Positions 50,031-59,748 of a stretch of 64,000 nt of DNA are shown in pieces; within the stretch, counting starts at the first letter, position 1; every line of letters starts with the position of its first letter. A program made the position numbers and the translations under genes. Source of the stretch: Clostridia bacterium (GTDB lineage Bacteria; Bacillota; Clostridia; TANB77; CAG-508); contig JAFRCC010000022.1 in the NCBI GenBank assembly GCA_017404545.1, positions 86,448 to 150,447 on the forward strand, written 5' to 3'. Below the pieces are notes generated by a model. The model was not told the origin of the DNA and searched no databases. It saw only the letters and a list, made by a program, of their open reading frames with translations.

Positions 50031-51113
50031 TTACTTTATTTCATGATCACAGAATATGCATCTTAATTTATTATCATTACATTTTACTGCAAGTTGCTTT
50101 AATCCCCTTTCGATAGAAGTTATACACATGGAATTCTCGCATTTACAATTATTGCTTTCTATAGCATCATTTAAGTGTTTATATTCATAATTTAAATTTT
50201 TCTCGTCCAGCAATTTAAGTATTATTGCCATACGCATATATCTGCCGTTTTCTGCTTGCCTAAAGTATGCTGCTCTTCTCTTATCGTCATCAACCTCTAC
50301 CGCAATTTCATTAACACGTGGTAATGGGTGGAGTATACTTAAATCTTCTTTCGCATTATCCAGCTTTTTCTTATCTAAAATATATACATCTTTTAATCTT
50401 TCATATTCTTCTACATCTGTAAAACGCTCTCTTTGTATTCTTGTCATATATAGTATATCTAATTCAGGTATGCTCCCTTCTAAGTTATTTGTTTCCACAT
50501 ATTCAATATTCTTTTTATCAAGTATTTCATTTATGTATTCCGGCATTTTTAATTCTTCTGGAGAAATAAATACAAATTTTACATTACTATATAGTGATAA
50601 TGCTGTTACTAAAGAATGTACAGTCCTTCCATATTTCAAGTCCCCACATAAACCCACTGTTAGATTATCTATATGACCCTTCTCTTTACTAATTGTTAAT
50701 AAATCTAATAAAGTTTGAGTAGGATGATTGTGTCCTCCATCACCAGCATTTATAATTGGTACGTTTGAATGCATAGAAGCAACCAGTGGAGCTCCCTCTT
50801 TTGGATGTCTCATAGCTATTATATCTGAATAACCACTTACAACAGTTATTGTATCTGCAAGTGATTCCCCCTTTGATGTAGATGAACTATTTGCATTCGA
50901 AAAACCAAGAATACTACCTCCCAAACTAAGCATTGCAGACTCAAAACTAAGCCTTGTTCTTGTACTTGGTTCAAAAAATAAAGTAGCCAAAATTTTTCCT
51001 TTACACATTTCACTATATTTTTCTTTATTATCCATTATATCCTTAGAAATTTCTATTAATTCGTCAATCTCTTCTTTTGAGAAGTCTTCTATACCTATTA
51101 AATCTCTCATCAA
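50031..51113 (-). CDS. pyrB: Aspartate carbamoyltransferase catalytic chain fused to a C-terminal PyrI-type zinc-binding regulatory domain.
   Basis: STRTR and HPxQ ATCase motifs. C-terminal [16 protein letters not shown]...LRCIFCDHE four-Cys zinc domain. 360 aa versus ~305 for a plain PyrB. Confidence 0.75.
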
Positions 51114-51123
51114 AACTCTCCTT

Positions 51124-51207
51124 TAATTTTGGGGACGGAGCAAAAAATTTCACAAATTCCTCTATAATTTTGGAGACAGAGCAAAATATTTCACAAATCC
51201 CTCTATA
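51124..51207 (+). repeat. Two tandem ~41-bp units each containing the REP-like core TTTTGG(G/A)GAC(G/A)GAGCAAAA(A/T)ATTT, directly upstream of the pyrB RBS.
   Basis: Units 51124-51166 and 51165-51207 differ at five positions. Confidence 0.7.
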
Positions 51208-51296
51208 TTTTTTATCTATTTTAGAAAATGCTCACAATTAAAGGACCGAGCATATTCTACGTTTTCGTATAATATACCCAATCCTTTAATATTTAA

Positions 51297-51935
51297 CTAT
51301 TTAATCCAGCTTTCATCACTTGGATTATTTCTAAATTTAATTAATCTTTCTTTATCTTCTTCTTTGATATATCCCTTTTCTGCTGCAACTTCAACCATTA
51401 CATCGAAGTTTGATAAGCTTATATTTTTTACATTAGCTTCTTTAAGTGCTTCTTTGCTCTTAGCCATGTTATATGTGAAAATACTTACTATACCTAGAAC
51501 ATTTGCTCCAGCTTCTCTTAAAACATTAACAACGTCAATAACACTTCCACCTGTTGAAATTAAATCTTCTACAACAACAACTTTTTGTCCTGGAATTAAT
51601 CTTCCTTCGATTTGGTTCTTTCTTCCATGATCTTTGCTACTTCCTCTAACGTATCCCATTGGAAGTCCTAGTATATCAGCAGTAATAGCTGCATGTGCAA
51701 TACCTGCAGTACTTGTTCCCATCAAGACTTCTGCTCCAGCAAAATTTTCTTGAATTATAGTAGCTAGCCCTTCCTCAACGTCATTTCTAACAATTGGTGA
51801 TGTTAATGTTAATCTGTTATCACAATAAATAGGGCTCTTAATTCCACTTGCCCATGTAAAAGGATCATCTGGCTTTAAAAATATAGCCTCTATAGATAAT
51901 AAATCCTTTGCAATTTTTTGTTCCATGTTTTCCAT
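51297..51935 (-). CDS. pyrE: Orotate phosphoribosyltransferase.
   Basis: PRPP-binding VVVVEDLISTGGS. Length fits PyrE. Confidence 0.8.
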   Translation of the reverse strand: MENMEQKIAKDLLSIEAIFLKPDDPFTWASGIKSPIYCDNRLTLTSPIVRNDVEEGLATIIQENFAGAEVLMGTSTAGIAHAAITADILGLPMGYVRGSSKDHGRKNQIEGRLIPGQKVVVVEDLISTGGSVIDVVNVLREAGANVLGIVSIFTYNMAKSKEALKEANVKNISLSNFDVMVEVAAEKGYIKEEDKERLIKFRNNPSDESWIK

Positions 51936-51953
51936 AATAAAATATCCTCCTTA

Positions 51954-52059
51954 AATTTTGGGGACGGAGCAAAAAATTAAAGTTACCATAATTTTTTGCT
52001 TTCCCCAAATAATCTATTTATATATTTTCTGAAGACTCAAATTTTTTGCTCCGTCCCCA
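51954..52059. repeat. Three REP-like copies in the pyrF-pyrE intercistronic region: forward 51954-51979, degenerate reverse 51989-52009, perfect reverse 52040-52059 abutting the pyrF stop codon.
   Basis: Core GGGGACGGAGCAAAAAATT and its reverse complement read directly. Confidence 0.75.
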
Positions 52060-52761
52060 TTAATCAATAAAATCTATTACACATTTTCTATATGCTTCAA
52101 CCGGGTTTTCAGCTTGAGTTATTGGTCTACCAACAACTATATAATCTGAACCTAATTCTTTTGCTTTAGCAGGTGTTGTAATTCTAACTTGGTCTCCTGC
52201 ATCCTTAGCAGCGAATCTAATTCCTGGTGTTACGGTAATAAAATCTTTTCCACATTTTGCTTTAACAGCTTGTACTTCAAGTGGTGAACAAACTACACCA
52301 TCAAGTCCTGCTTCTTTTGTATTTTGAGCATAATGCATAACTACATCCTCTATTGGCTCTTTAATTAGAAGTTCATTTTCCATTCTTTCTTGGCTTGTAG
52401 ATGTTAACTGTGTTACGCCAATTAGGATTGTATTTCTACTTCCATCCTCTTTTGTAAGACCCTTAAGTCCTGCTGCCATCATATCTTTTGTTCCAGCAGC
52501 ATGAACATTTGTCATGTCAACATCTAATCTTGAAAGAGATCTCATTCCCTTTTCAACTGTATTTGGAATGTCATGAAGCTTAAGATCTAAGAATATCTTA
52601 TGCCCCCTATTTTTTATTTCTCTTACAATATCTGGTCCCTCACTATAAAATAGCTCCATACCAATTTTAAGAAATAACTTTTCATCTTTAAATTTATCTA
52701 AGAATGCAAGCGTATCTGCTTTATCTTTAAAATCGCAAGCTATAATAACTCCTTTTCCCAT
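52060..52761 (-). CDS. pyrF: Orotidine 5'-phosphate decarboxylase.
   Basis: [13 protein letters not shown] motif and length. Confidence 0.8.
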
Positions 52762-52780
52762 CTTACATACTCCTTTACTA

Positions 52781-53080
52781 TTATCTATTATTATTTAATT
52801 TTTCTTTAATGTATTTTAATTCTTCTTCATTTAGTTTTTCTACACGATGTTTTTGACCATATTCTTTTTGTTTTTCTGGAGAAAGCTCTGCAGTTAAATC
52901 CTCAAGCTCTCGTGCAAAAATCTTATTTTGAAAAACATTCTTGTATACAATTAGATTTTCTATTGGTTTATCTGAATTATCACCAGAATACTTAACACCA
53001 ATCTCTAGTACCTCACATATGTTTTTATCATCTAAACTTGTACCTTTAAAATGTTTAAAATAGTCACCTTTTTGTAGCAT
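52781..53080 (-). CDS. DUF1653-like small protein embedded in the pyr operon.
   Basis: GDYFKHFKG...LIVYKN pattern. Confidence 0.4.
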
Positions 53081-53119
53081 TTCTTTACCTCTTTCGATTT
53101 TACTTTTTCACATTAAATA

Positions 53120-54040
53120 TTAGTGTGCAGCTCCAATTATATCTTTCAAGCTATCAATTTCATATTTTTCCATAGCTGCTGGTAAATTATCAATAATTTC
53201 TTTACAAGCATATGGATTTTTTAAGTTAGCAGCACCTACTTCAATAGCAGAAGCTCCTGCAAGCATCATTTCTATAACATCTTCTGCAGATTCAATTCCT
53301 CCAACACCAATGATTGGAATCTTAACTGCTTCATATACTTGGTAAACCATTCTAAGTGCCACTGGAAATATTGCAGGACCCGAAAAACCTCCCATTTTAT
53401 TGGCTATAACTGGCTTTTTATTTTTTAAATTAATTCTCATTCCAAGTAATGTATTTATTAAAACAATACCATCTGCTCCAGCAGCTTCAACCGCTTTAGC
53501 TATTTCAACAATATTTGTAACATTTGGTGTTAATTTTACATATACAGGTTTTGTAGTAACAGCTTTAACAGCTCTTGTTACTTCAGCAGCTGCCTCTGGA
53601 TTTGTTCCAAAGGTCATACCACCATTATGTACGTTTGGACAGCTTATATTTACTTCTATAATTTCAACTTGCTCTTCTTTATCCATTAGCTTGCAGCAAT
53701 GAACATATTCATCTATAGCGAATCCACTTATATTTGCTATTAACGGTTTCTTAAAGCAGCTTCTTAATTTTGGAAGCTCTTCAGAAATTACTTTATCAAC
53801 TCCTGGATTTTGAAGACCAATTGCATTTATTAATCCTGATTTACAATCTGCAATACGTGGTAATGGATTACCATATCTTGGCTCTTTAGTTGTTCCTTTG
53901 AAAGAAATAGATCCTAAAATGTTAATATCATAAAAGTCAGTGAATTCATATCCAAATCCAAATGTTCCACTTGCTGGAATTACTGGATTATCTAGCTTTA
54001 CTCCACTTAAAGTTGTTGTTAAATCTTTATTTATTCCCAT
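53120..54040 (-). CDS. pyrD: Dihydroorotate dehydrogenase catalytic subunit (class 1B).
   Basis: N-terminal LSGVKLDNPVIPASGTFGFG plus FMN-binding motifs. Confidence 0.8.
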   Translation of the reverse strand: MGINKDLTTTLSGVKLDNPVIPASGTFGFGYEFTDFYDINILGSISFKGTTKEPRYGNPLPRIADCKSGLINAIGLQNPGVDKVISEELPKLRSCFKKPLIANISGFAIDEYVHCCKLMDKEEQVEIIEVNISCPNVHNGGMTFGTNPEAAAEVTRAVKAVTTKPVYVKLTPNVTNIVEIAKAVEAAGADGIVLINTLLGMRINLKNKKPVIANKMGGFSGPAIFPVALRMVYQVYEAVKIPIIGVGGIESAEDVIEMMLAGASAIEVGAANLKNPYACKEIIDNLPAAMEKYEIDSLKDIIGAAH

Positions 54041-54771
54041 ATTAAGCTCTCCTTTCTGAACACTGGTCCTTCTTTACAAACTCTTCTATAACCATCTTTA
54101 GTTTTAATTGTACATCCCATACATGCTCCAAATCCGCATCCCATACGCTCTTCTAAACTTACTTGTCCAGACTTGTCTGTTGCTCCGCATATTGCTTTAA
54201 GCATAACCATTGGACCACATGCATAGAAGTATGTATAATCGTTTAAATCTTTCATTACATCTGTAACAAAACCTTTTGTACCAACACTTCCATCATTAGT
54301 TGAAACGTATACATCAACACCTAGCTTTTTGAATTCTTCTTCAAAGAATAAGTCATCTTTAGAGCCAAATCCTAATATAACTATTGGTTTCTTTCCTTTA
54401 GCTATTAAATCTTTACACAGTCTGTACATCGGAGGTGTACCGACGCCTCCCCCAATAACAAGTGGTCTATCTCCATCACAATCTAAATCAAATCCATTCC
54501 CTAATCCTGTTAATACGTCTAGCTCGACACCATTTTTTAGATTTGCCATTATCTCAGTACCTTTACCTACTACTTTGTAGATAATTGTAACTGTTTTATC
54601 ATCATAATCGCATATTGAAATTGGACGTCTCAAATATAGTGATTCAAGCTCTATATTTATAAATTGTCCTGCATTTTTTATGTCTTTTGTATCGCCCTCA
54701 AGAACAATCTTGAATACATCTTTAGCAATATTCACATTTTCAATAATCTTAAATTTTGCTCGTTTATTCAC
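54031..54771 (-). CDS. pyrK: Dihydroorotate dehydrogenase electron-transfer subunit (GTG start).
   Basis: FAD/NAD fold. C-terminal 2Fe-2S cysteines CGFGACMGC. Confidence 0.75.
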   Translation of the reverse strand: MNKRAKFKIIENVNIAKDVFKIVLEGDTKDIKNAGQFINIELESLYLRRPISICDYDDKTVTIIYKVVGKGTEIMANLKNGVELDVLTGLGNGFDLDCDGDRPLVIGGGVGTPPMYRLCKDLIAKGKKPIVILGFGSKDDLFFEEEFKKLGVDVYVSTNDGSVGTKGFVTDVMKDLNDYTYFYACGPMVMLKAICGATDKSGQVSLEERMGCGFGACMGCTIKTKDGYRRVCKEGPVFRKESLIWE

Positions 54772-54787
54772 TCAGCTTCCTCCTTTA

Positions 54788-54868
54788 ATTTTAGGGACGT
54801 ACTCATTTTTTTGAGTTTACTATCCCACTTTTATGGTTAACTTTATTTTTTTGCTCCGTCCCCAAAAA
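54788..54868. repeat. REP-like pair in the pyrC-pyrK junction: degenerate forward copy 54788-54815 upstream of the pyrK RBS, and reverse copy 54846-54868 lying inside the last six codons of pyrC.
   Basis: Reverse copy tttttttgctccgtcccc encodes G-D-G-A-K-K-stop of PyrC on the minus strand. Confidence 0.7.
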
Positions 54869-56117
54869 CTAACTTTCCATCGCAGAATGTCATTTTGCAT
54901 CTACCAAATACGTGGTTTCCGTCAAATGGAGTTGCTTTACCCATTGATACAAATGTAGATGAATCAATGTCATATTCTTCATTTAAATCATATACAGTCA
55001 TATCAGCAGGAGCTCCTACTTTTAATTCTGAACCAATTCCAAATATCTTTGTAGCATTTGAATTCATAAGCTCTAATAGTTTTTCTAAAGTAATTATTCC
55101 TGGTTTTACTAAGTTTGTATATAAAACTGGGAAACAAACCTCTAAACCAACAACTCCCATTGCGCTTCCAGCTAATCCTTTTGATTTTTCTTCAGCAGAA
55201 TGAGGAGCATGGTCTGTTATTATTAGATCAATTGTTCCATCTTTTATTCCTTCAATTAAAGCAAGTCTATCTTCTTCAGATCTTATTGGAGGATTCATTT
55301 TAAATCTTCCTTCTTCTTTAATTTGCATATCATTCATTGTTAAGTAGTGTGGACCAGTTTCGCAAGTAATTGGAACCCCTTCTTTTTTAGCTTGTCTAAT
55401 TAGTTCAACACTTTCCTTTGTAGATATGTGACATACATGATAGTGGCATCCAGTTTGTCTTGAAAGCTCTATATCTCTCTTGATTGGAACCCACTCACTT
55501 GCTGAGCAAATACCTTTGTGTCCATGTAATTTAGCATACTCCCCATCATGTATATATCCACCGTTTAAGAGAGAATTCTCTTCGCAATGAGCAACAACCA
55601 TTTTACCAAGTTCTTTTGCTTGTTTCATTGCCTCTAACATCATTCCTTCTTTTTGGACTCCATGTCCGTCGTCAGAAAAAGCAATAACTTTATCAGCTAT
55701 ACCTTTTAAGTCTGCTAGCTCTTCACCTTTTTCTCCGACTGTTATAGTTCCATATGGATAAACATGTATTTTAGCATCTTTTTCGATTGCATCAAGCTCT
55801 ATTTGTAAGTTTTCCATACAGTCTGGTGTTGGATTTAAGTTTGGCATTGCACAAATGCTTGTGTAACCACCTTTAGCACCTGCATAGCTACCAGTTGCAA
55901 TGGTCTCCTTATAAATAAAACCAGGTTCCCTTAGATGTGTATGAACATCAATTAAACCTGGTAATAAATACATATTATTCAAATCGTAAACTACATCGAA
56001 TCCGTTAGCTTCGATGTTTGCAGAAATATTAGTAATAACTCTATCAGTAATTTCTAAATCACTTTTAGTGAATTTTCCTTCTGTAAAAATCATAGCATTC
56101 TTTAATAATGTTTTCAT
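54843..56117 (-). CDS. pyrC: Dihydroorotase (start MKTLLKN).
   Basis: DVHTHLREPG metal-binding motif. Track ORF trimmed from 56174. Confidence 0.8.
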   Translation of the reverse strand: MKTLLKNAMIFTEGKFTKSDLEITDRVITNISANIEANGFDVVYDLNNMYLLPGLIDVHTHLREPGFIYKETIATGSYAGAKGGYTSICAMPNLNPTPDCMENLQIELDAIEKDAKIHVYPYGTITVGEKGEELADLKGIADKVIAFSDDGHGVQKEGMMLEAMKQAKELGKMVVAHCEENSLLNGGYIHDGEYAKLHGHKGICSASEWVPIKRDIELSRQTGCHYHVCHISTKESVELIRQAKKEGVPITCETGPHYLTMNDMQIKEEGRFKMNPPIRSEEDRLALIEGIKDGTIDLIITDHAPHSAEEKSKGLAGSAMGVVGLEVCFPVLYTNLVKPGIITLEKLLELMNSNATKIFGIGSELKVGAPADMTVYDLNEEYDIDSSTFVSMGKATPFDGNHVFGRCKMTFCDGKLVFGDGAKK

Positions 56118-56218
56118 TTTAATCCTCCCTTCAATCTCATCTATGATATAAGAAATGGAACAAAATGTCAACATTTTTTTATTTTAAAGAAAAAAATAGA
56201 AAAAATTTTATAAAATAA

Positions 56219-56248
56219 AAAGACCCCCCAGCATATTCGCGGGGGGAT
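56219..56248 (-). terminator. GC-rich terminator (C6 agcatattcg G7) followed on the minus strand by a U-rich run.
   Basis: Read directly. Confidence 0.6.
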
Positions 56249-56362
56249 CATGACCATTTGGCTTAGAAACAATCAGCTCGTTAAGGACTCCTAACGTATT
56301 AAAGCAGTATGGAAATAGCTTACTACATAGTTTTCCATTTACTCATAGACACGTACCTTGGT

Positions 56363-57256
56363 TTAGCGAAGGCACGCTGGTTCAACCAATTCGATGAGCA
56401 ACCCGCCTCCATGCTTAAAAACACCTAACGTATTATAGCTGTATGGAAGCCTCCTTTCAACTACCCAGCTTGCTCGGTTGTTTATACCATTGCCCTTCTG
56501 ACGGGTAACAAATGTATATTCTGCATCATGATCACTAAAAAGCAGTTGGTGGGCGTTGGTATTGAATTTTCCTGTAGACGTTCTTTGCCAAGCCTCAAAT
56601 GTGTCGGTGGAAGTCATAGTAACTTCATATTGTGTTTTTGCATATACATCAGCCTTAACAATTTTGAAGATTACGTACAATCCAGCAACAATCGCAAGAT
56701 TCTTCATTTCATTAAATGTCCAGCCAGTTTCCTCGCAAAGTTCAATTTCAAGACCTGGAATTTTAATCACCAGGCTATAACCTCCGATGATAGACCATTT
56801 GTAGAAGTTTACAGTCAAGTGCCGCAGACGAGACTCCGTCCAGTCACTTTTAATTTCATCCACATCCATCTCAAAAGGACCAAATAAACTCAGTCCCATC
56901 ATGAAAACCGGTTTTTCATTGAAACAATCATTTCCTTTTGCACCTGCGTGAACATTACGACTTCTTACACCATCATACTCATCATACAAAACACATTTAC
57001 CTTTCACAAGCAATCTTTCCAACATAGCAATAAAAAGCTTTTCTACATAGCTCTTATAAGCCTCAGAAACGCTAATTAAGTCAGATGCCTCCATTGTGAT
57101 TGGCTCCACTTTTGGTGCGGTATTTGTTTTCGCTTCGTGTGTAGTGTTTGTTACTGCCTTGGGTGCTGCAATTGTTGTTGTCGCACTTGCTGTGCTTGTA
57201 GCTGCAGCTGTTACATTGTTTGCTCTAGCCTTCCGGCCTTTGAAAAAGTCCATCAT
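56363..57256 (-). CDS. Hypothetical protein on a ~42% GC islet (start MMDFFKG). N-terminal Ala/Thr-rich low-complexity region.
   Basis: ORF with atypical composition. A partial duplicate of its 3' end lies at 56275..56345. Confidence 0.45.
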   Translation of the reverse strand: MMDFFKGRKARANNVTAAATSTASATTTIAAPKAVTNTTHEAKTNTAPKVEPITMEASDLISVSEAYKSYVEKLFIAMLERLLVKGKCVLYDEYDGVRSRNVHAGAKGNDCFNEKPVFMMGLSLFGPFEMDVDEIKSDWTESRLRHLTVNFYKWSIIGGYSLVIKIPGLEIELCEETGWTFNEMKNLAIVAGLYVIFKIVKADVYAKTQYEVTMTSTDTFEAWQRTSTGKFNTNAHQLLFSDHDAEYTFVTRQKGNGINNRASWVVERRLPYSYNTLGVFKHGGGLLIELVEPACLR

Positions 57257-57511
57257 TTTTGATGACCTCCTTAAAAAAATTTTTTTGGTTAACTTCAGTT
57301 CAGGAACTTCCTTTACCGAATTCTTCTTGACCAATTTCTCTGTGCCAAAATGCCTTAATTACGGCTCAACGGCGGAGATTTAATTCAAAAATATTAACCT
57401 ATACACATTATATCATGTTTACATAATCGTGTCAAAATTTGGCAAAAAAATTCAACATGTCAATATATTTATCAACTTGCTGAATTTAAATCTCTACCTT
57501 TATAAAATTAA

Positions 57512-58153
57512 TTATTTAATTGTAATTCCTAATAATTTCGATAATTCCAAAGCTTGTAACTCACTTACAATAACTCCTTTTAAGCTATCTGGTGTTATTG
57601 CAATTCCAGTAATATCACAGCTAGACAAATCTATATTATTTAAACTTGTTCCCATTAGCTGTGATGCTATTAGATTATTGTTTACAAATTCTACATCTTT
57701 AAAATGTACTTCTTGGAAAACCGAATTAGACATCTTATTTTCATTAAAACAAACCTCTTTATATGTACCAAGCGACATACTTGAATATGAAATATTCGAA
57801 TTATCCATTAATATGTTATACATATTTACATTGCAGAAATTTGATCCAACTAATTTGCAGTTTACAAATGTGACTCTTACAAAATTACATTCATAAAAAA
57901 ATGTATTTGAGAAATCACAGTTTTCAAACAACACATCCGTAAAGTAAACTCTTTCAAACTTGCTATTAGGGCTAATGCACTCTCTAAATTCACAAGAGCT
58001 AAACTCCATGCCCTGAGCTTCAATATTCCCCTCATAGCATTTATTAAAATAACAGCATGCCACATCCATATCGTGGTTAACCGCTTCTCTTATTACTCCT
58101 TTAATTGTATTACATTCTGTTGTTCCATCTAAATTTGGTTTAATAACTTCCAT
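57512..58153 (-). CDS. Pentapeptide-repeat protein (Qnr/MfpA-like).
   Basis: Tandem A(D/N)LXX pentapeptide repeats across 213 aa (NCDFSNTFFYECNFVRVTFVNCKLVGSNFCNVNM). Confidence 0.65.
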   Translation of the reverse strand: MEVIKPNLDGTTECNTIKGVIREAVNHDMDVACCYFNKCYEGNIEAQGMEFSSCEFRECISPNSKFERVYFTDVLFENCDFSNTFFYECNFVRVTFVNCKLVGSNFCNVNMYNILMDNSNISYSSMSLGTYKEVCFNENKMSNSVFQEVHFKDVEFVNNNLIASQLMGTSLNNIDLSSCDITGIAITPDSLKGVIVSELQALELSKLLGITIK

Positions 58154-58227
58154 TGTATATTCCTCATCTTTCTTGTGTGACTATGTTGCTTTATGCTCTA
58201 AATTTAAGTTATAAAGCCGATTTTAAA

Positions 58228-58803
58228 TTAAAATCCTATAATACTTCTAAGCTCTGCCTGGGTTTCTTCAAGTGTTTTACTATTTTCAACGTTAAATACT
58301 TTTATTGATGGGTATCTTTTCTTAATATCTTCTGCCATCTCTAAGTACACCCTTTGTTGATTTATACTATTTTCTGCTTCAAATTTTGAATTGTGAAAAC
58401 TTGCTTTTTCAGGTCTTTTTAGTCTTTCATTGTATAAATCCTCATTTTCTAGGTACAAAGTAATATAGTAGATTTCGAAATCTAATTTACTAAATTCATC
58501 AAGTAATCTTTCATACACATCCGAAAAAGTATATTCCTTTTTTCCTAATCTACAATAGTTCTCCTCCGTAAAAAATGTTCTGTCAAATACTAAATTAATG
58601 CTCTTATTTTCTAAACCTTTTATGTACTCCATTAGATGGTCATACATCTCCTCGGCTTTCTTTTTCCCCGTTGGAGTACTATCTGAAGTACCACACAATC
58701 TATATAAATTTGTATAACTTAATGAATGTCTTAAAAAGTCTGTAATTGTTGTTTTTCCTGCTCCTTGAGCTCCTTCTATTACAATTAATTTTGAATTTGC
58801 CAT
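58228..58803 (-). CDS. P-loop nucleoside/nucleotide kinase-like protein.
   Basis: Walker A IVIEGAQGAGKTT. Confidence 0.5.
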   Translation of the reverse strand: MANSKLIVIEGAQGAGKTTITDFLRHSLSYTNLYRLCGTSDSTPTGKKKAEEMYDHLMEYIKGLENKSINLVFDRTFFTEENYCRLGKKEYTFSDVYERLLDEFSKLDFEIYYITLYLENEDLYNERLKRPEKASFHNSKFEAENSINQQRVYLEMAEDIKKRYPSIKVFNVENSKTLEETQAELRSIIGF

Positions 58804-58851
58804 GCCTTACGCCTCCTACGTTATATTACATCAAAGCTATTGTATATGTCA

Positions 58852-58882
58852 ATTAAATTTTGGGGACGGAGCAAAAAATTTA
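58852..58882 (+). repeat. REP-like copy (forward) flanking the downstream side of the RAYT gene.
   Basis: aattaaattttggggacggagcaaaaaattt. Confidence 0.7.
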
Positions 58883-58885
58883 AGT

Positions 58886-59650
58886 TTACATATTTTCTTC
58901 TGCAGCACGTACTACTTTCCAGTAACTAATATTTAACTTCTTTTGAATATCTTTTTTACATATAAATTCTGACTTTAGTAGCAATCTAATCAAGTCATTT
59001 CTCTTATCTTTTTCATTTAAAACTTCCTCTAAACTCATTTTTTTTGATTGGCAAAATTTCATTATATATTCTTCCATTACATAATCCTTGTCGTATTCAA
59101 CGTCAAGAAAATCATTACATACATCAACGGATTCAATTTGAGTGATATCTGTTTTTCCGAAAAAATGCTCTAAAAATGGTGATTCTCTTAAAAATATATT
59201 TCTTGAAAAATTATTATACGAGGAATACTCATAATCACTACATTTTTTTACTATTTTAGCTTTTACGGGATTTTTATGTATATAATTAATACACTGAAAT
59301 AAATATTTCTCATCATATATTGGTTGACTTTTAAATCTATCTCGAAATACAAAGCCTACTCTCTCCATTTTCCAGTTATAAAATTGAGCGAATTCTGTGT
59401 TTATGCATTTCATATATTTAGACATTTGCGCAATGCTTTCTGTATGTATTAATATATGTGTATGGTTAGACATAATACAATAACATATAATATCTAAATC
59501 CACATCATTGATATATTTTTTCATCAAAGCCAAATACTTTCTTTTTAACATATCATTTGCGAAAATCATTTCTTTGTTAATTCCTTGGCACATAACATGA
59601 AAAAAAGATGCATTTAACTCTTCTCTAGAGCGTCTTGACAAATTTTTCAT
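58886..59650 (-). CDS. REP-associated tyrosine transposase (RAYT; IS200/IS605-like HuH Y1 transposase) with a C-terminal extension.
   Basis: FHVMCQGINKEMIF, HuH motif SNHTHILIH and catalytic-Tyr motif YIHKNPV. Confidence 0.65.
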   Translation of the reverse strand: MKNLSRRSREELNASFFHVMCQGINKEMIFANDMLKRKYLALMKKYINDVDLDIICYCIMSNHTHILIHTESIAQMSKYMKCINTEFAQFYNWKMERVGFVFRDRFKSQPIYDEKYLFQCINYIHKNPVKAKIVKKCSDYEYSSYNNFSRNIFLRESPFLEHFFGKTDITQIESVDVCNDFLDVEYDKDYVMEEYIMKFCQSKKMSLEEVLNEKDKRNDLIRLLLKSEFICKKDIQKKLNISYWKVVRAAEENM

Positions 59651-59726
59651 CTCCTTTATTGATAATTTGCCCCCTAGTTTGCTGTTATATACACCTTTTC
59701 CCCTATTGTTTAATTATTGTAAACTT

Positions 59727-59748
59727 TAATTTTTTGCTCCGTCCCTAT
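59727..59748 (-). repeat. REP-like copy (reverse orientation) overlapping the metG stop codon and flanking the upstream side of the RAYT gene.
   Basis: taattttttgctccgtcccta. Minus RNA reads ...AUG CAA AAA UAG GGACGGAGCAAAAAAUU. Confidence 0.7.

Follow-up and report, generated by a model that had tools for sequence, protein, structure and literature searches.

Within the HUH-Y1 tyrosine transposase-like proteins, TnpAY1 subclass 2.1 is described as having a median length of 238 aa, the HuH motif NHVH, the motif Y[IV]HLNP, an SS motif and a C-terminal domain resembling a helix-turn-helix (HTH) (Quentin et al. 2018, PMC6006769); the corresponding motif table reads NHVH/NH[YF]H, W[EQ]/FQ, YIELNP/Y[IV]HLNP and SS (PMC6006769). 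The same authors equate this subclass with Group 1 among the RAYTs (REP-associated tyrosine transposases; REP, repetitive extragenic palindrome) of Bertels, which is reported in Clostridia among others (Bertels et al. 2017, PMC5581495). They equate it, too, with Di Nocera's TIRYTs, whose genes lie between inverted repeats that have GGGGWSAS in common (Di Nocera et al. 2013, PMC3733652). Some of these terminal inverted repeat (TIR) families are moderately abundant and arranged as dimers (PMC3733652), and no REP-like sequences were found for subclass 2.1 (Quentin et al. 2018, PMC6006769). Here we analyse a window of 64,000 nt from a Clostridia bacterium (assembly GCA_017404545.1, contig JAFRCC010000022.1, positions 86,448 to 150,447 of the forward strand), in which a family of short repeats lies in the pyrimidine (pyr) operon and around a nearby RAYT/TIRYT-type gene. 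The repeats are a hairpin-forming mobile DNA family and not a pyrimidine-specific control element. We consider it very probable that they are non-autonomous repeats of the REP/REPIN type which, together with their cognate HUH-Y1 gene, make up a REPtron or TIRtron. A candidate new pyr regulator is thereby removed and replaced by a documented class, RAYT/TIRYT plus repeats, which is extended to uncultured low-GC gut Clostridia.

With 29.7% G+C the window is A/T-rich; it belongs to a metagenome scaffold of 306 kb from an uncultured Clostridia bacterium. All genes of the region are encoded on the minus strand, in the order metG, the gene for a 251-aa Y1-transposase-like protein, an NTPase-like gene, a pentapeptide-repeat gene, an open reading frame (ORF) of unknown function and then the pyr genes in the order pyrC-pyrK-pyrD-orf99-pyrF-pyrE-pyrB. 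The 19-mer GGGGACGGAGCAAAAAATT, allowing up to 3 mismatches, has seven matches in the window, with 0.02 expected from shuffled sequence; in the remaining ~55 kb of the window there is no match at this threshold, and a shorter core agrees. With two degenerate copies the total is nine, all within 8.6 kb (51.1-59.7 kb), so that the nine-copy family within 9 kb described by the sequence-only reading is real. Repeat finding independently recovered the same families and, in addition, a 41-nt tandem duplication at 51113-51194. The copies occupy five places: the metG stop, the Y1-gene stop, the pyrC-pyrK and pyrF-pyrE junctions and the region upstream of the Shine-Dalgarno (SD) sequence of pyrB. One inverted pair (58863-58890 and 59718-59745; 28 nt, 96% complementary) encloses the Y1 gene and no pyr junction.

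51131-51149, 51172-51190 (3 mismatches), 51960-51978 and 58862-58880, plus strand: matches to the 19-mer.
52040-52058, 54845-54863 and 59728-59746, minus strand: matches to the 19-mer.
51113..51194, plus strand: copies A and A', tandem 41-nt units in the same orientation directly upstream of the pyrB SD; the core of A is perfect, that of A' has 3 mismatches.
51946..51990, plus strand: copy B, agreeing with the consensus at 34 of 35 positions, inverted partner of copy D; its outer arm continues into the pyrE SD (AAAATTTAAGGAGG).
51984..52016 (51989-52009 in the sequence-only reading), minus strand: copy C, degenerate, with a 2-nt core deletion and one mismatch, oriented as copy D.
52030..52072, minus strand: copy D, its core starting 2 nt past the pyrF stop, without outer arm.
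51946-52072: REPIN doublet of copies B and D at the pyrF-pyrE junction.
54780..54822 (54788-54815 in the sequence-only reading), plus strand: copy E, diverged, followed immediately by the pyrK SD and forming a weak doublet with copy F; it can be aligned over all 38 nt and retains the arms and inner extension, with a different loop (GGGACGTACTCATTTTT).
54832..54876, minus strand: copy F, entered by the pyrC reading frame.
58853..58890, plus strand: right (downstream) inverted repeat of the RAYT gene, a full unit agreeing with the consensus at 37 of 37 positions.
58886..59641, minus strand: RAYT/TIRYT-type HUH-Y1 gene, 251 aa from a TTG start.
59718..59746, minus strand: left (upstream) inverted repeat of the RAYT gene, without outer arm; its initial bases are the metG stop (AAATAGGGACGG).

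An independent assembly of window positions 51124-59743 (L002) ends on both sides exactly inside repeat copies, as expected of an assembler blocked by a repeat. This is a weak sign of multicopy status only, because the exact stretch in common is ~28 nt.

The RAYT gene has an alternative start in the ORF list, an ATG at 59650, three codons upstream of the TTG. The 251-aa product of the TTG start is called exactly on public contigs, and the ATG-start form has no exact match. The protein carries NHTH (HuH), YIHKNPVKAKIV (the Y...NP motif, YIHKNP) and YSSY; at the C-terminus a helical domain follows. It scores 69 bits against NCBIfam REP_Tyr_transpos, under the cutoff of 80, and 37 bits against Pfam Y1_Tnp; among Pfam HTH families there is no significant match (NUMOD1, E 0.011), and PF02954 is found in two homologues. 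Its only meaningful sequence match in the PDB is E. coli TnpA-REP. The AlphaFold model (pLDDT 92.7) contains a confident helical domain at residues 185-248, and its top fold match in the PDB is 4ER8, TnpA-REP bound to a REP hairpin (E 1e-7, TM 0.72), followed by the IS608 and ISDra2 transposases.

Read on its sense strand, the gene has GGGACGGAGC... before it and ...GCTCCGTCCCC after it. The same flanking, with a plus copy upstream and a minus copy downstream, is found at the homologues in L137 (57% identity), L139 (50%), L149 (49%), L141 (46%), L046 (40%) and L069 (38%). The right repeat extends over the RAYT stop codon and directly adjoins the -35 box in the promoter-like site of the next gene (58852-58823). 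The stops of metG (59747-59745) and of RAYT both lie inside repeat copies, and the overlap with the metG stop recurs at L139 and L149. The locus adjoins metG in the window, L137, L139 and L149, and sits on the other side of metG in L141; its presence at one metG-adjacent locus in five lineages may reflect vertical inheritance there.

These features also bear on whether the gene, taken with its inverted repeats, could be an ordinary autonomous insertion sequence (IS) of the IS200/IS605 type, with the short copies as MITE or PATE derivatives. The terminal inverted repeats bound the gene as they would in an IS, Pfam assigns the protein to an IS200-like family, and IS608 and ISDra2 are the next-best folds; an HUH-Y1 catalytic core, hairpin ends that by homology would be recognised on single-stranded DNA and short non-autonomous derivatives are common to both systems. 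However, the tyrosine motif is Y...NP, as in class 2 (RAYT), and not the Y...Q of IS200 (PMC6006769), no tnpB is present, and the gene keeps its chromosomal locus beside metG, with each homologue found in one genomic context only. We therefore regard an ordinary IS as very unlikely and a RAYT with its repeats as the better description.

Beyond the window, the 16-mer core was scanned against one genome per species (596 Gb), which returned more than 119 stretches. Among the matches listed, the core is multi-copy in about 30 low-GC gut metagenome-assembled genomes (MAGs) of Clostridia/Eubacteriales, usually with several copies per MAG on different contigs; per-MAG copy numbers in relatives reach at least 7-13, on several contigs each. 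CAMUZZ01, a MAG with window-type arms, has copies beside rdgB/rusA, mnmA/cysS, rpoD and dnaE, the congeneric MAG JAFWDV01 has copies on three contigs (L099, L105, L124), and in other relatives copies lie between aspS and fur and ahead of a miaB-like gene. Copies beside so many unrelated genes show that the element is not tied to pyr, and a restriction of the motif to this operon is contradicted.

The distribution was quantified over 776 kb of low-GC loci, which hold 147 copies. Outside called ORFs lie 129 of the 147 (88%), although the non-ORF share of the sequence is only 22% (p 5e-65). Flanking genes run co-directionally in 75 cases, convergently in 11 and divergently in 8; in 44 of 97 cases the upstream stop codon is at most 35 nt away from the core. 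Neighbouring copies make up 39 doublets of the (+,-) type, accounting for 78 of the 147 copies, and none of the (-,+) type (p 4e-12), with a modal core-to-core spacing of 77-82 nt. A doublet, or REPIN, consists of two inverted units with their GGGG ends outward, and the RAYT gene sits in that same arrangement. Together with the flanked RAYT, the dispersed extragenic copies, the strict doublet orientation and copies that are absent or polymorphic in syntenic relatives (see below), this supports one of the two views offered by the sequence-only reading, that a mobile REP family with REPIN-like doublets had colonised the operon.

Some matches were set aside. Those in high-GC genomes (Pseudomonas, Paraburkholderia and others) occur singly, lack arms and context and are attributed to chance, since by our own arithmetic a few hundred chance 16-mer matches are expected in 596 Gb. 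Viral contigs gave 12 single matches, most without T-run, A-run or arms and likewise attributed to chance; two or three are possibly genuine. Separately, two Bacteroidaceae MAGs (46-49% G+C) carry the 16-mer core at three loci, L066:4014-4059, L084:2768-2925 and L102:4194-4239, where it forms closely spaced inverted doublets whose arms are richer in G+C (GGGCTATTT...AAATCGCCC); no Y1 gene was found within those 8-kb loci.

Each unit forms a hairpin in which an A/T-rich stem of 9-10 bp (9-12 bp by covariation) encloses a conserved 13-nt loop, GGGGACGGAGCAA. Across low-GC MAGs the constant core is TTTT-GGGGACGGAGCAA-AAAA, and the arms differ between genomes yet remain complementary: the self-complementary outer arms are GATGATTTT / AAAATCATC, GCTGTTTTT / AAAAACAGC and AATGATTTT / AAAATCATT in other genomes and CTTAAATTTT / AAAATTTAAG in the window. 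Over 122 distinct copies and a 12-pair stem, 78% of cells are paired as against 64.5% in shuffled controls, double-sided changes number 211 versus 90, and the covariation score is 0.368, compared with 0.147 after shuffling and no more than 0.17 when the register is slid; these counts are inflated by copies within a genome being related by copying, though several independent arm types exist. Folding the unit as single-stranded DNA gives the same hairpin with the 13-nt loop (z -2.2 to -4.9). Loop variants follow lineages, with AGC, AGG, AGT, GGC or TTCC after GGGGACGG. A conserved loop on a freely varying stem offers a simple substrate for asking how such enzymes read DNA.

A core that is conserved across genomes while its flanks vary, with some copies abutting -35 boxes, would also suit a double-stranded DNA site bound by a regulator or a nucleoid protein, its spread then being a regulon. 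Covariation of the flanks as a stem is not needed for such a site, though, and the copies lie mostly past stop codons between co-directional genes, beside functionally unrelated neighbours. As the orientation rule of the doublets and the flanking of the RAYT gene suit a transposable unit, we hold a protein-binding site to be exceedingly improbable and retain the REP-type reading.

Two variant structures were seen. At L117:6063-6075 a unit with the usual GATGTTTTT/AAAAACATC arms has a palindrome (GGGGACAGTCCCC) as its loop. L151:15636-15735 holds another perfect palindrome of 30 nt (AGAGACAGAGGGACGGACCATTTGTCTGCA and its reverse complement) with a partial third copy; it also contains GGGACGG and may represent another family of such repeats.

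By motifs, length and GGGG-initiated inverted repeats, the nearest known system appears to be TIRYT/TnpAY1 subclass 2.1. This placement comes from motifs and length and not from a tree with reference sequences, so that subclass 2.6, with YIH[QN]NP and 'atypical secondary structures', remains a candidate. At 251 aa the window protein compares with the subclass median of 238, and it has the SS tail motif and an extra helical C-terminal domain. Its homologues carry NHVH (in most), RFKSQ, YIHLNP and YSSY, the window protein itself having NHTH and YIHKNP. The TIRYT sequence GGGGWSAS agrees with GGGGACGG at 7 of 8 positions, with G for A at position 7, and, as for TIRYTs, the flanking inverted repeats start with GGGG and the 3' repeat overlaps the end of the gene. 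Unlike subclass 2.1 as described by Quentin et al., the flanking repeat belongs to an evident hairpin family, of which related MAGs carry dozens of dispersed copies, and unlike described TIRYTs it has a conserved loop and a covarying stem and its host is an uncultured low-GC gut Clostridia lineage. This links a RAYT resembling subclass 2.1 or Group 1 to an evident population of hairpin repeats that includes REPIN doublets.

The likeness to the TnpA-REP/BIME system of E. coli and the REPINs of Pseudomonas fluorescens extends from the best PDB fold and a gene flanked by its own repeat to the repeats themselves, which are short extragenic hairpins, often in inverted doublets, mostly between co-directional or convergent genes and near stop codons. 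As in canonical REP/REPIN-RAYT systems, the RAYT can be lost while repeats remain (L146-L148). The differences lie in the stem, which is weak and A/T-rich here with a large conserved 13-nt loop, whereas canonical REPs have a G+C-rich conserved stem and a small loop, and in the protein, which is about 100 aa longer than a canonical RAYT. The repeat sequence is absent from the supplements of two REP surveys, and a literature search with GGGGACGGAGC returned unrelated papers only. The motif fit, the GGGG repeats and the absence from the survey tables lead us to class the system as a new member of the RAYT/TIRYT-with-repeats class with a non-canonical unit.

By analogy with TnpA-REP, IS608 and ISDra2, the RAYT would bind the hairpin on single-stranded DNA, reading the loop or the foot sequence, and would cut and rejoin it. 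Doublets and singlets would thereby have spread into short A/T-rich intergenic spacers. In the window lineage, copies would have landed in three junctions of pyrC-K-D-orf99-F-E-B, where one inserted copy would have replaced the last pyrC codons, and would have come to flank the RAYT gene beside metG. As a side effect, transcribed doublets would form strong hairpins in the polycistronic mRNA and may alter its stability or termination-reinitiation.

For each intercistronic region the sequence-only reading had proposed one layout: stop, copy, spacer, inverted copy, SD and start. Only pyrF-pyrE shows it in full. It is seen at pyrC-pyrK with the second copy degenerate, but pyrE-pyrB has two tandem copies in the same orientation and no inverted pair, and the pyrK-pyrD, pyrD-orf99 and orf99-pyrF junctions of the window hold no copy. 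At pyrC-pyrK the repeat enters the coding sequence. PyrC here ends ...KLVFGDGAKK* (stop 54845-54843), while its relatives end ...GKVVYKD* or ...GKEVWNIL*; because the pyrC frame runs into copy F, the final 7 residues (FGDGAKK) and the stop are encoded by the repeat (54843-54863).

Comparison of these junctions among relatives suggests that the insertions are young. The nearest relatives (L146-L150), whose pyr genes are 91-95% identical to the window at the nucleotide level, have a pyrC-pyrK junction of 12 nt, with the stop overlapping the SD, and a pyrF-pyrE junction of 42 nt, neither with a repeat. At pyrE-pyrB there is a single orthologous copy in L148 and none in L146. L146-L148 have no RAYT at the metG locus, yet a doublet elsewhere. 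L139 (86-89%) has a doublet between a terminator and the pyrC promoter and no copy at pyrC-pyrK or pyrE-pyrB; its pyrF-pyrE junction retains a decayed hairpin with the loop type of copy E of the window (GGGACGTACTCATTTTT). L153 has a compact pyr operon without any copy. As copies at pyr junctions are absent or polymorphic in syntenic relatives, those of the window are recent and lineage-specific. The relatives with empty junctions are not direct ancestors of the window lineage, and between filled and empty junctions the sequence from stop to SD is replaced and not simply interrupted, which leaves no clean insertion boundary or target site. Presence and absence among such close relatives provide a natural series for the effect of an intercistronic REPIN on an operon.

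At the RNA level, the pyrF-pyrE doublet is predicted to fold into a perfect stem of 20 bp (-39.2 kcal/mol, z -4.8) that starts 2 nt past the pyrF stop, as the sequence-only reading had proposed for paired halves in general. That generalisation does not extend to the other junctions: the pyrC-pyrK pair yields a weaker 9-bp stem (-23.1 kcal/mol, z -3.8) and the tandem pyrE-pyrB copies no significant structure (z -0.6). Occlusion of the ribosome-binding site, also proposed, has to be rejected, because 7-8 nt separate the 3' end of the predicted stem from the pyrE SD, which the centroid structure leaves unpaired. None of the repeats falls on a terminator-like site. Copies of the family do resemble PyrR attenuators (RF00515) in lying in pyr intercistronic regions and forming an mRNA stem-loop. 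Neither a PyrR site nor another Rfam family was found, however, at E up to 10 (50-60.5 kb) or at the gathering score (whole window), in agreement with the earlier remark that no PyrR binding-loop consensus is present; the weak miRNA-like Rfam matches merely mirror the long hairpin. There is no terminator/antiterminator pair, and the repeats also occur beside unrelated genes and in both orientations. Given the copies elsewhere and the repeat-free junctions of relatives, a pyr-specific attenuator or processing structure finds no support as the primary identity of the repeats.

Several observations weigh against the REP/REPIN interpretation. The 5' GT[AG]G tag of canonical REPs is absent: the feet of the hairpin are A/T-rich and variable, and the conserved block GGGGACGG sits inside the loop and not at the foot. 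Cleavage and transposition by the RAYT are activities that we infer from its solved relatives, and the L144 RAYT homologue (40% identity) has no recognisable flanking copy. Coverage of the window's own genome amounts to ~70 kb, within which all copies fall in 8.6 kb around the RAYT, so that genome-wide dispersal is shown for relatives, including the congeneric JAFWDV01. Finally, a distant lineage (L151:6918-10812, also L152) with its own loop variant, GGGGACGGTTCCAAAAA, has copies at pyrC-pyrK, pyrD-orf96, pyrF-pyrE (a doublet) and pyrE-pyrB. This locus was obtained via PyrE and not via the repeat, and 4 of its 6 pyr junctions are occupied against 1 of 16 others (Fisher p 0.009), for which neutral spread alone is insufficient; pyr junctions thus look like preferred targets or preferred survivors. 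A further 80 metagenome PyrE loci hold no copy and so add no REP-bearing pyr operon to this comparison.

This recurrence raises the possibility that copies in the pyr operon have been co-opted, either as intercistronic RNA hairpins that set the expression or stability of mRNA segments or through a factor responding to the GGGGACGG loop. The strong pyrF-pyrE stem placed between stop and SD, the filling of the same junctions in L151 with a different loop variant and the decayed hairpin kept at pyrF-pyrE of L139 would all suit such a role. REPs of E. coli stabilise upstream mRNA, and those near stop codons reportedly lower upstream translation (Liang, Rudd & Deutscher 2015); by this analogy the repeats could plausibly act on the stability of pyr mRNA or on termination at the stop preceding them. 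The closest relatives nevertheless run the operon with their repeat-free 12-nt and 42-nt junctions, the 80 further PyrE loci lack copies, the SD is not sequestered, the pyrE-pyrB copies form no significant structure, and both orientations are found, as for a DNA-level element. We consider co-option unlikely, and it would supplement a REP origin of the repeats, not displace it.

The RAYT gene itself diverges much faster than its surroundings. Its identity is only ~49-50% between the window (58886-59641) and L149:1857-2609 or L139:10001-10750, all adjacent to metG, while the neighbouring products, MetG, those of both genes downstream and the Pyr proteins, reach 89-98% identity (PyrB 79-81%). Canonical RAYTs, in contrast, are described as evolving like housekeeping genes. 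Judged from the sequences, the difference may reflect very fast evolution or cassette replacement. A combined scenario, in which doublets are repeatedly recruited as pyr mRNA hairpins and the metG-adjacent RAYT rapidly diversifies or is replaced as a cassette with its repeats, seems unlikely at present; if true, it would constitute a host-element co-evolution unlike that of the slow, housekeeping-like RAYTs so far described. The novelty of the locus rests on two points, the recurrent occupancy of pyr junctions (L151) and this divergence of the RAYT from its neighbours.

Further features of the region concern the genes around the repeats. The small NTPase-like gene has a weak dTMP-kinase match at its N-terminus. 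The product of orf99 (52781-53080, between pyrD and pyrF) has 99 aa and no family match; counterparts are present in L147 and L151 (96 aa) and not in L146, L139 or L153, and this patchy occurrence marks it as a variable operon insert. PyrB (50031-51113) has 360 aa, of which the last ~50 weakly match the C-terminal part of PyrI, the regulatory subunit of aspartate carbamoyltransferase; the PyrB products of relatives likewise match PyrI_C, and no other protein of the operon is as weakly conserved as PyrB (79-81% to close relatives). Just past the pyrE stop, a hairpin unrelated to the repeat (AAAGGAUUGGG...CUCGGUCCUUU; 51240-51287, minus strand) is kept in the window, L146-L150 and L139; no U-run follows it and it has no Rfam match. 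A G+C-richer stretch without Rfam match covers the 3' end of the ORF of unknown function and the sequence just past it (56175-56420, minus strand). At its end is a strong hairpin resembling a terminator (GAUCCCCCCGCG...CUGGGGGGUC plus a U-run), immediately upstream of the pyrC promoter, a promoter-like site TTGACA-17-TATCAT at 56171-56143 that precedes the real pyrC start at 56117.

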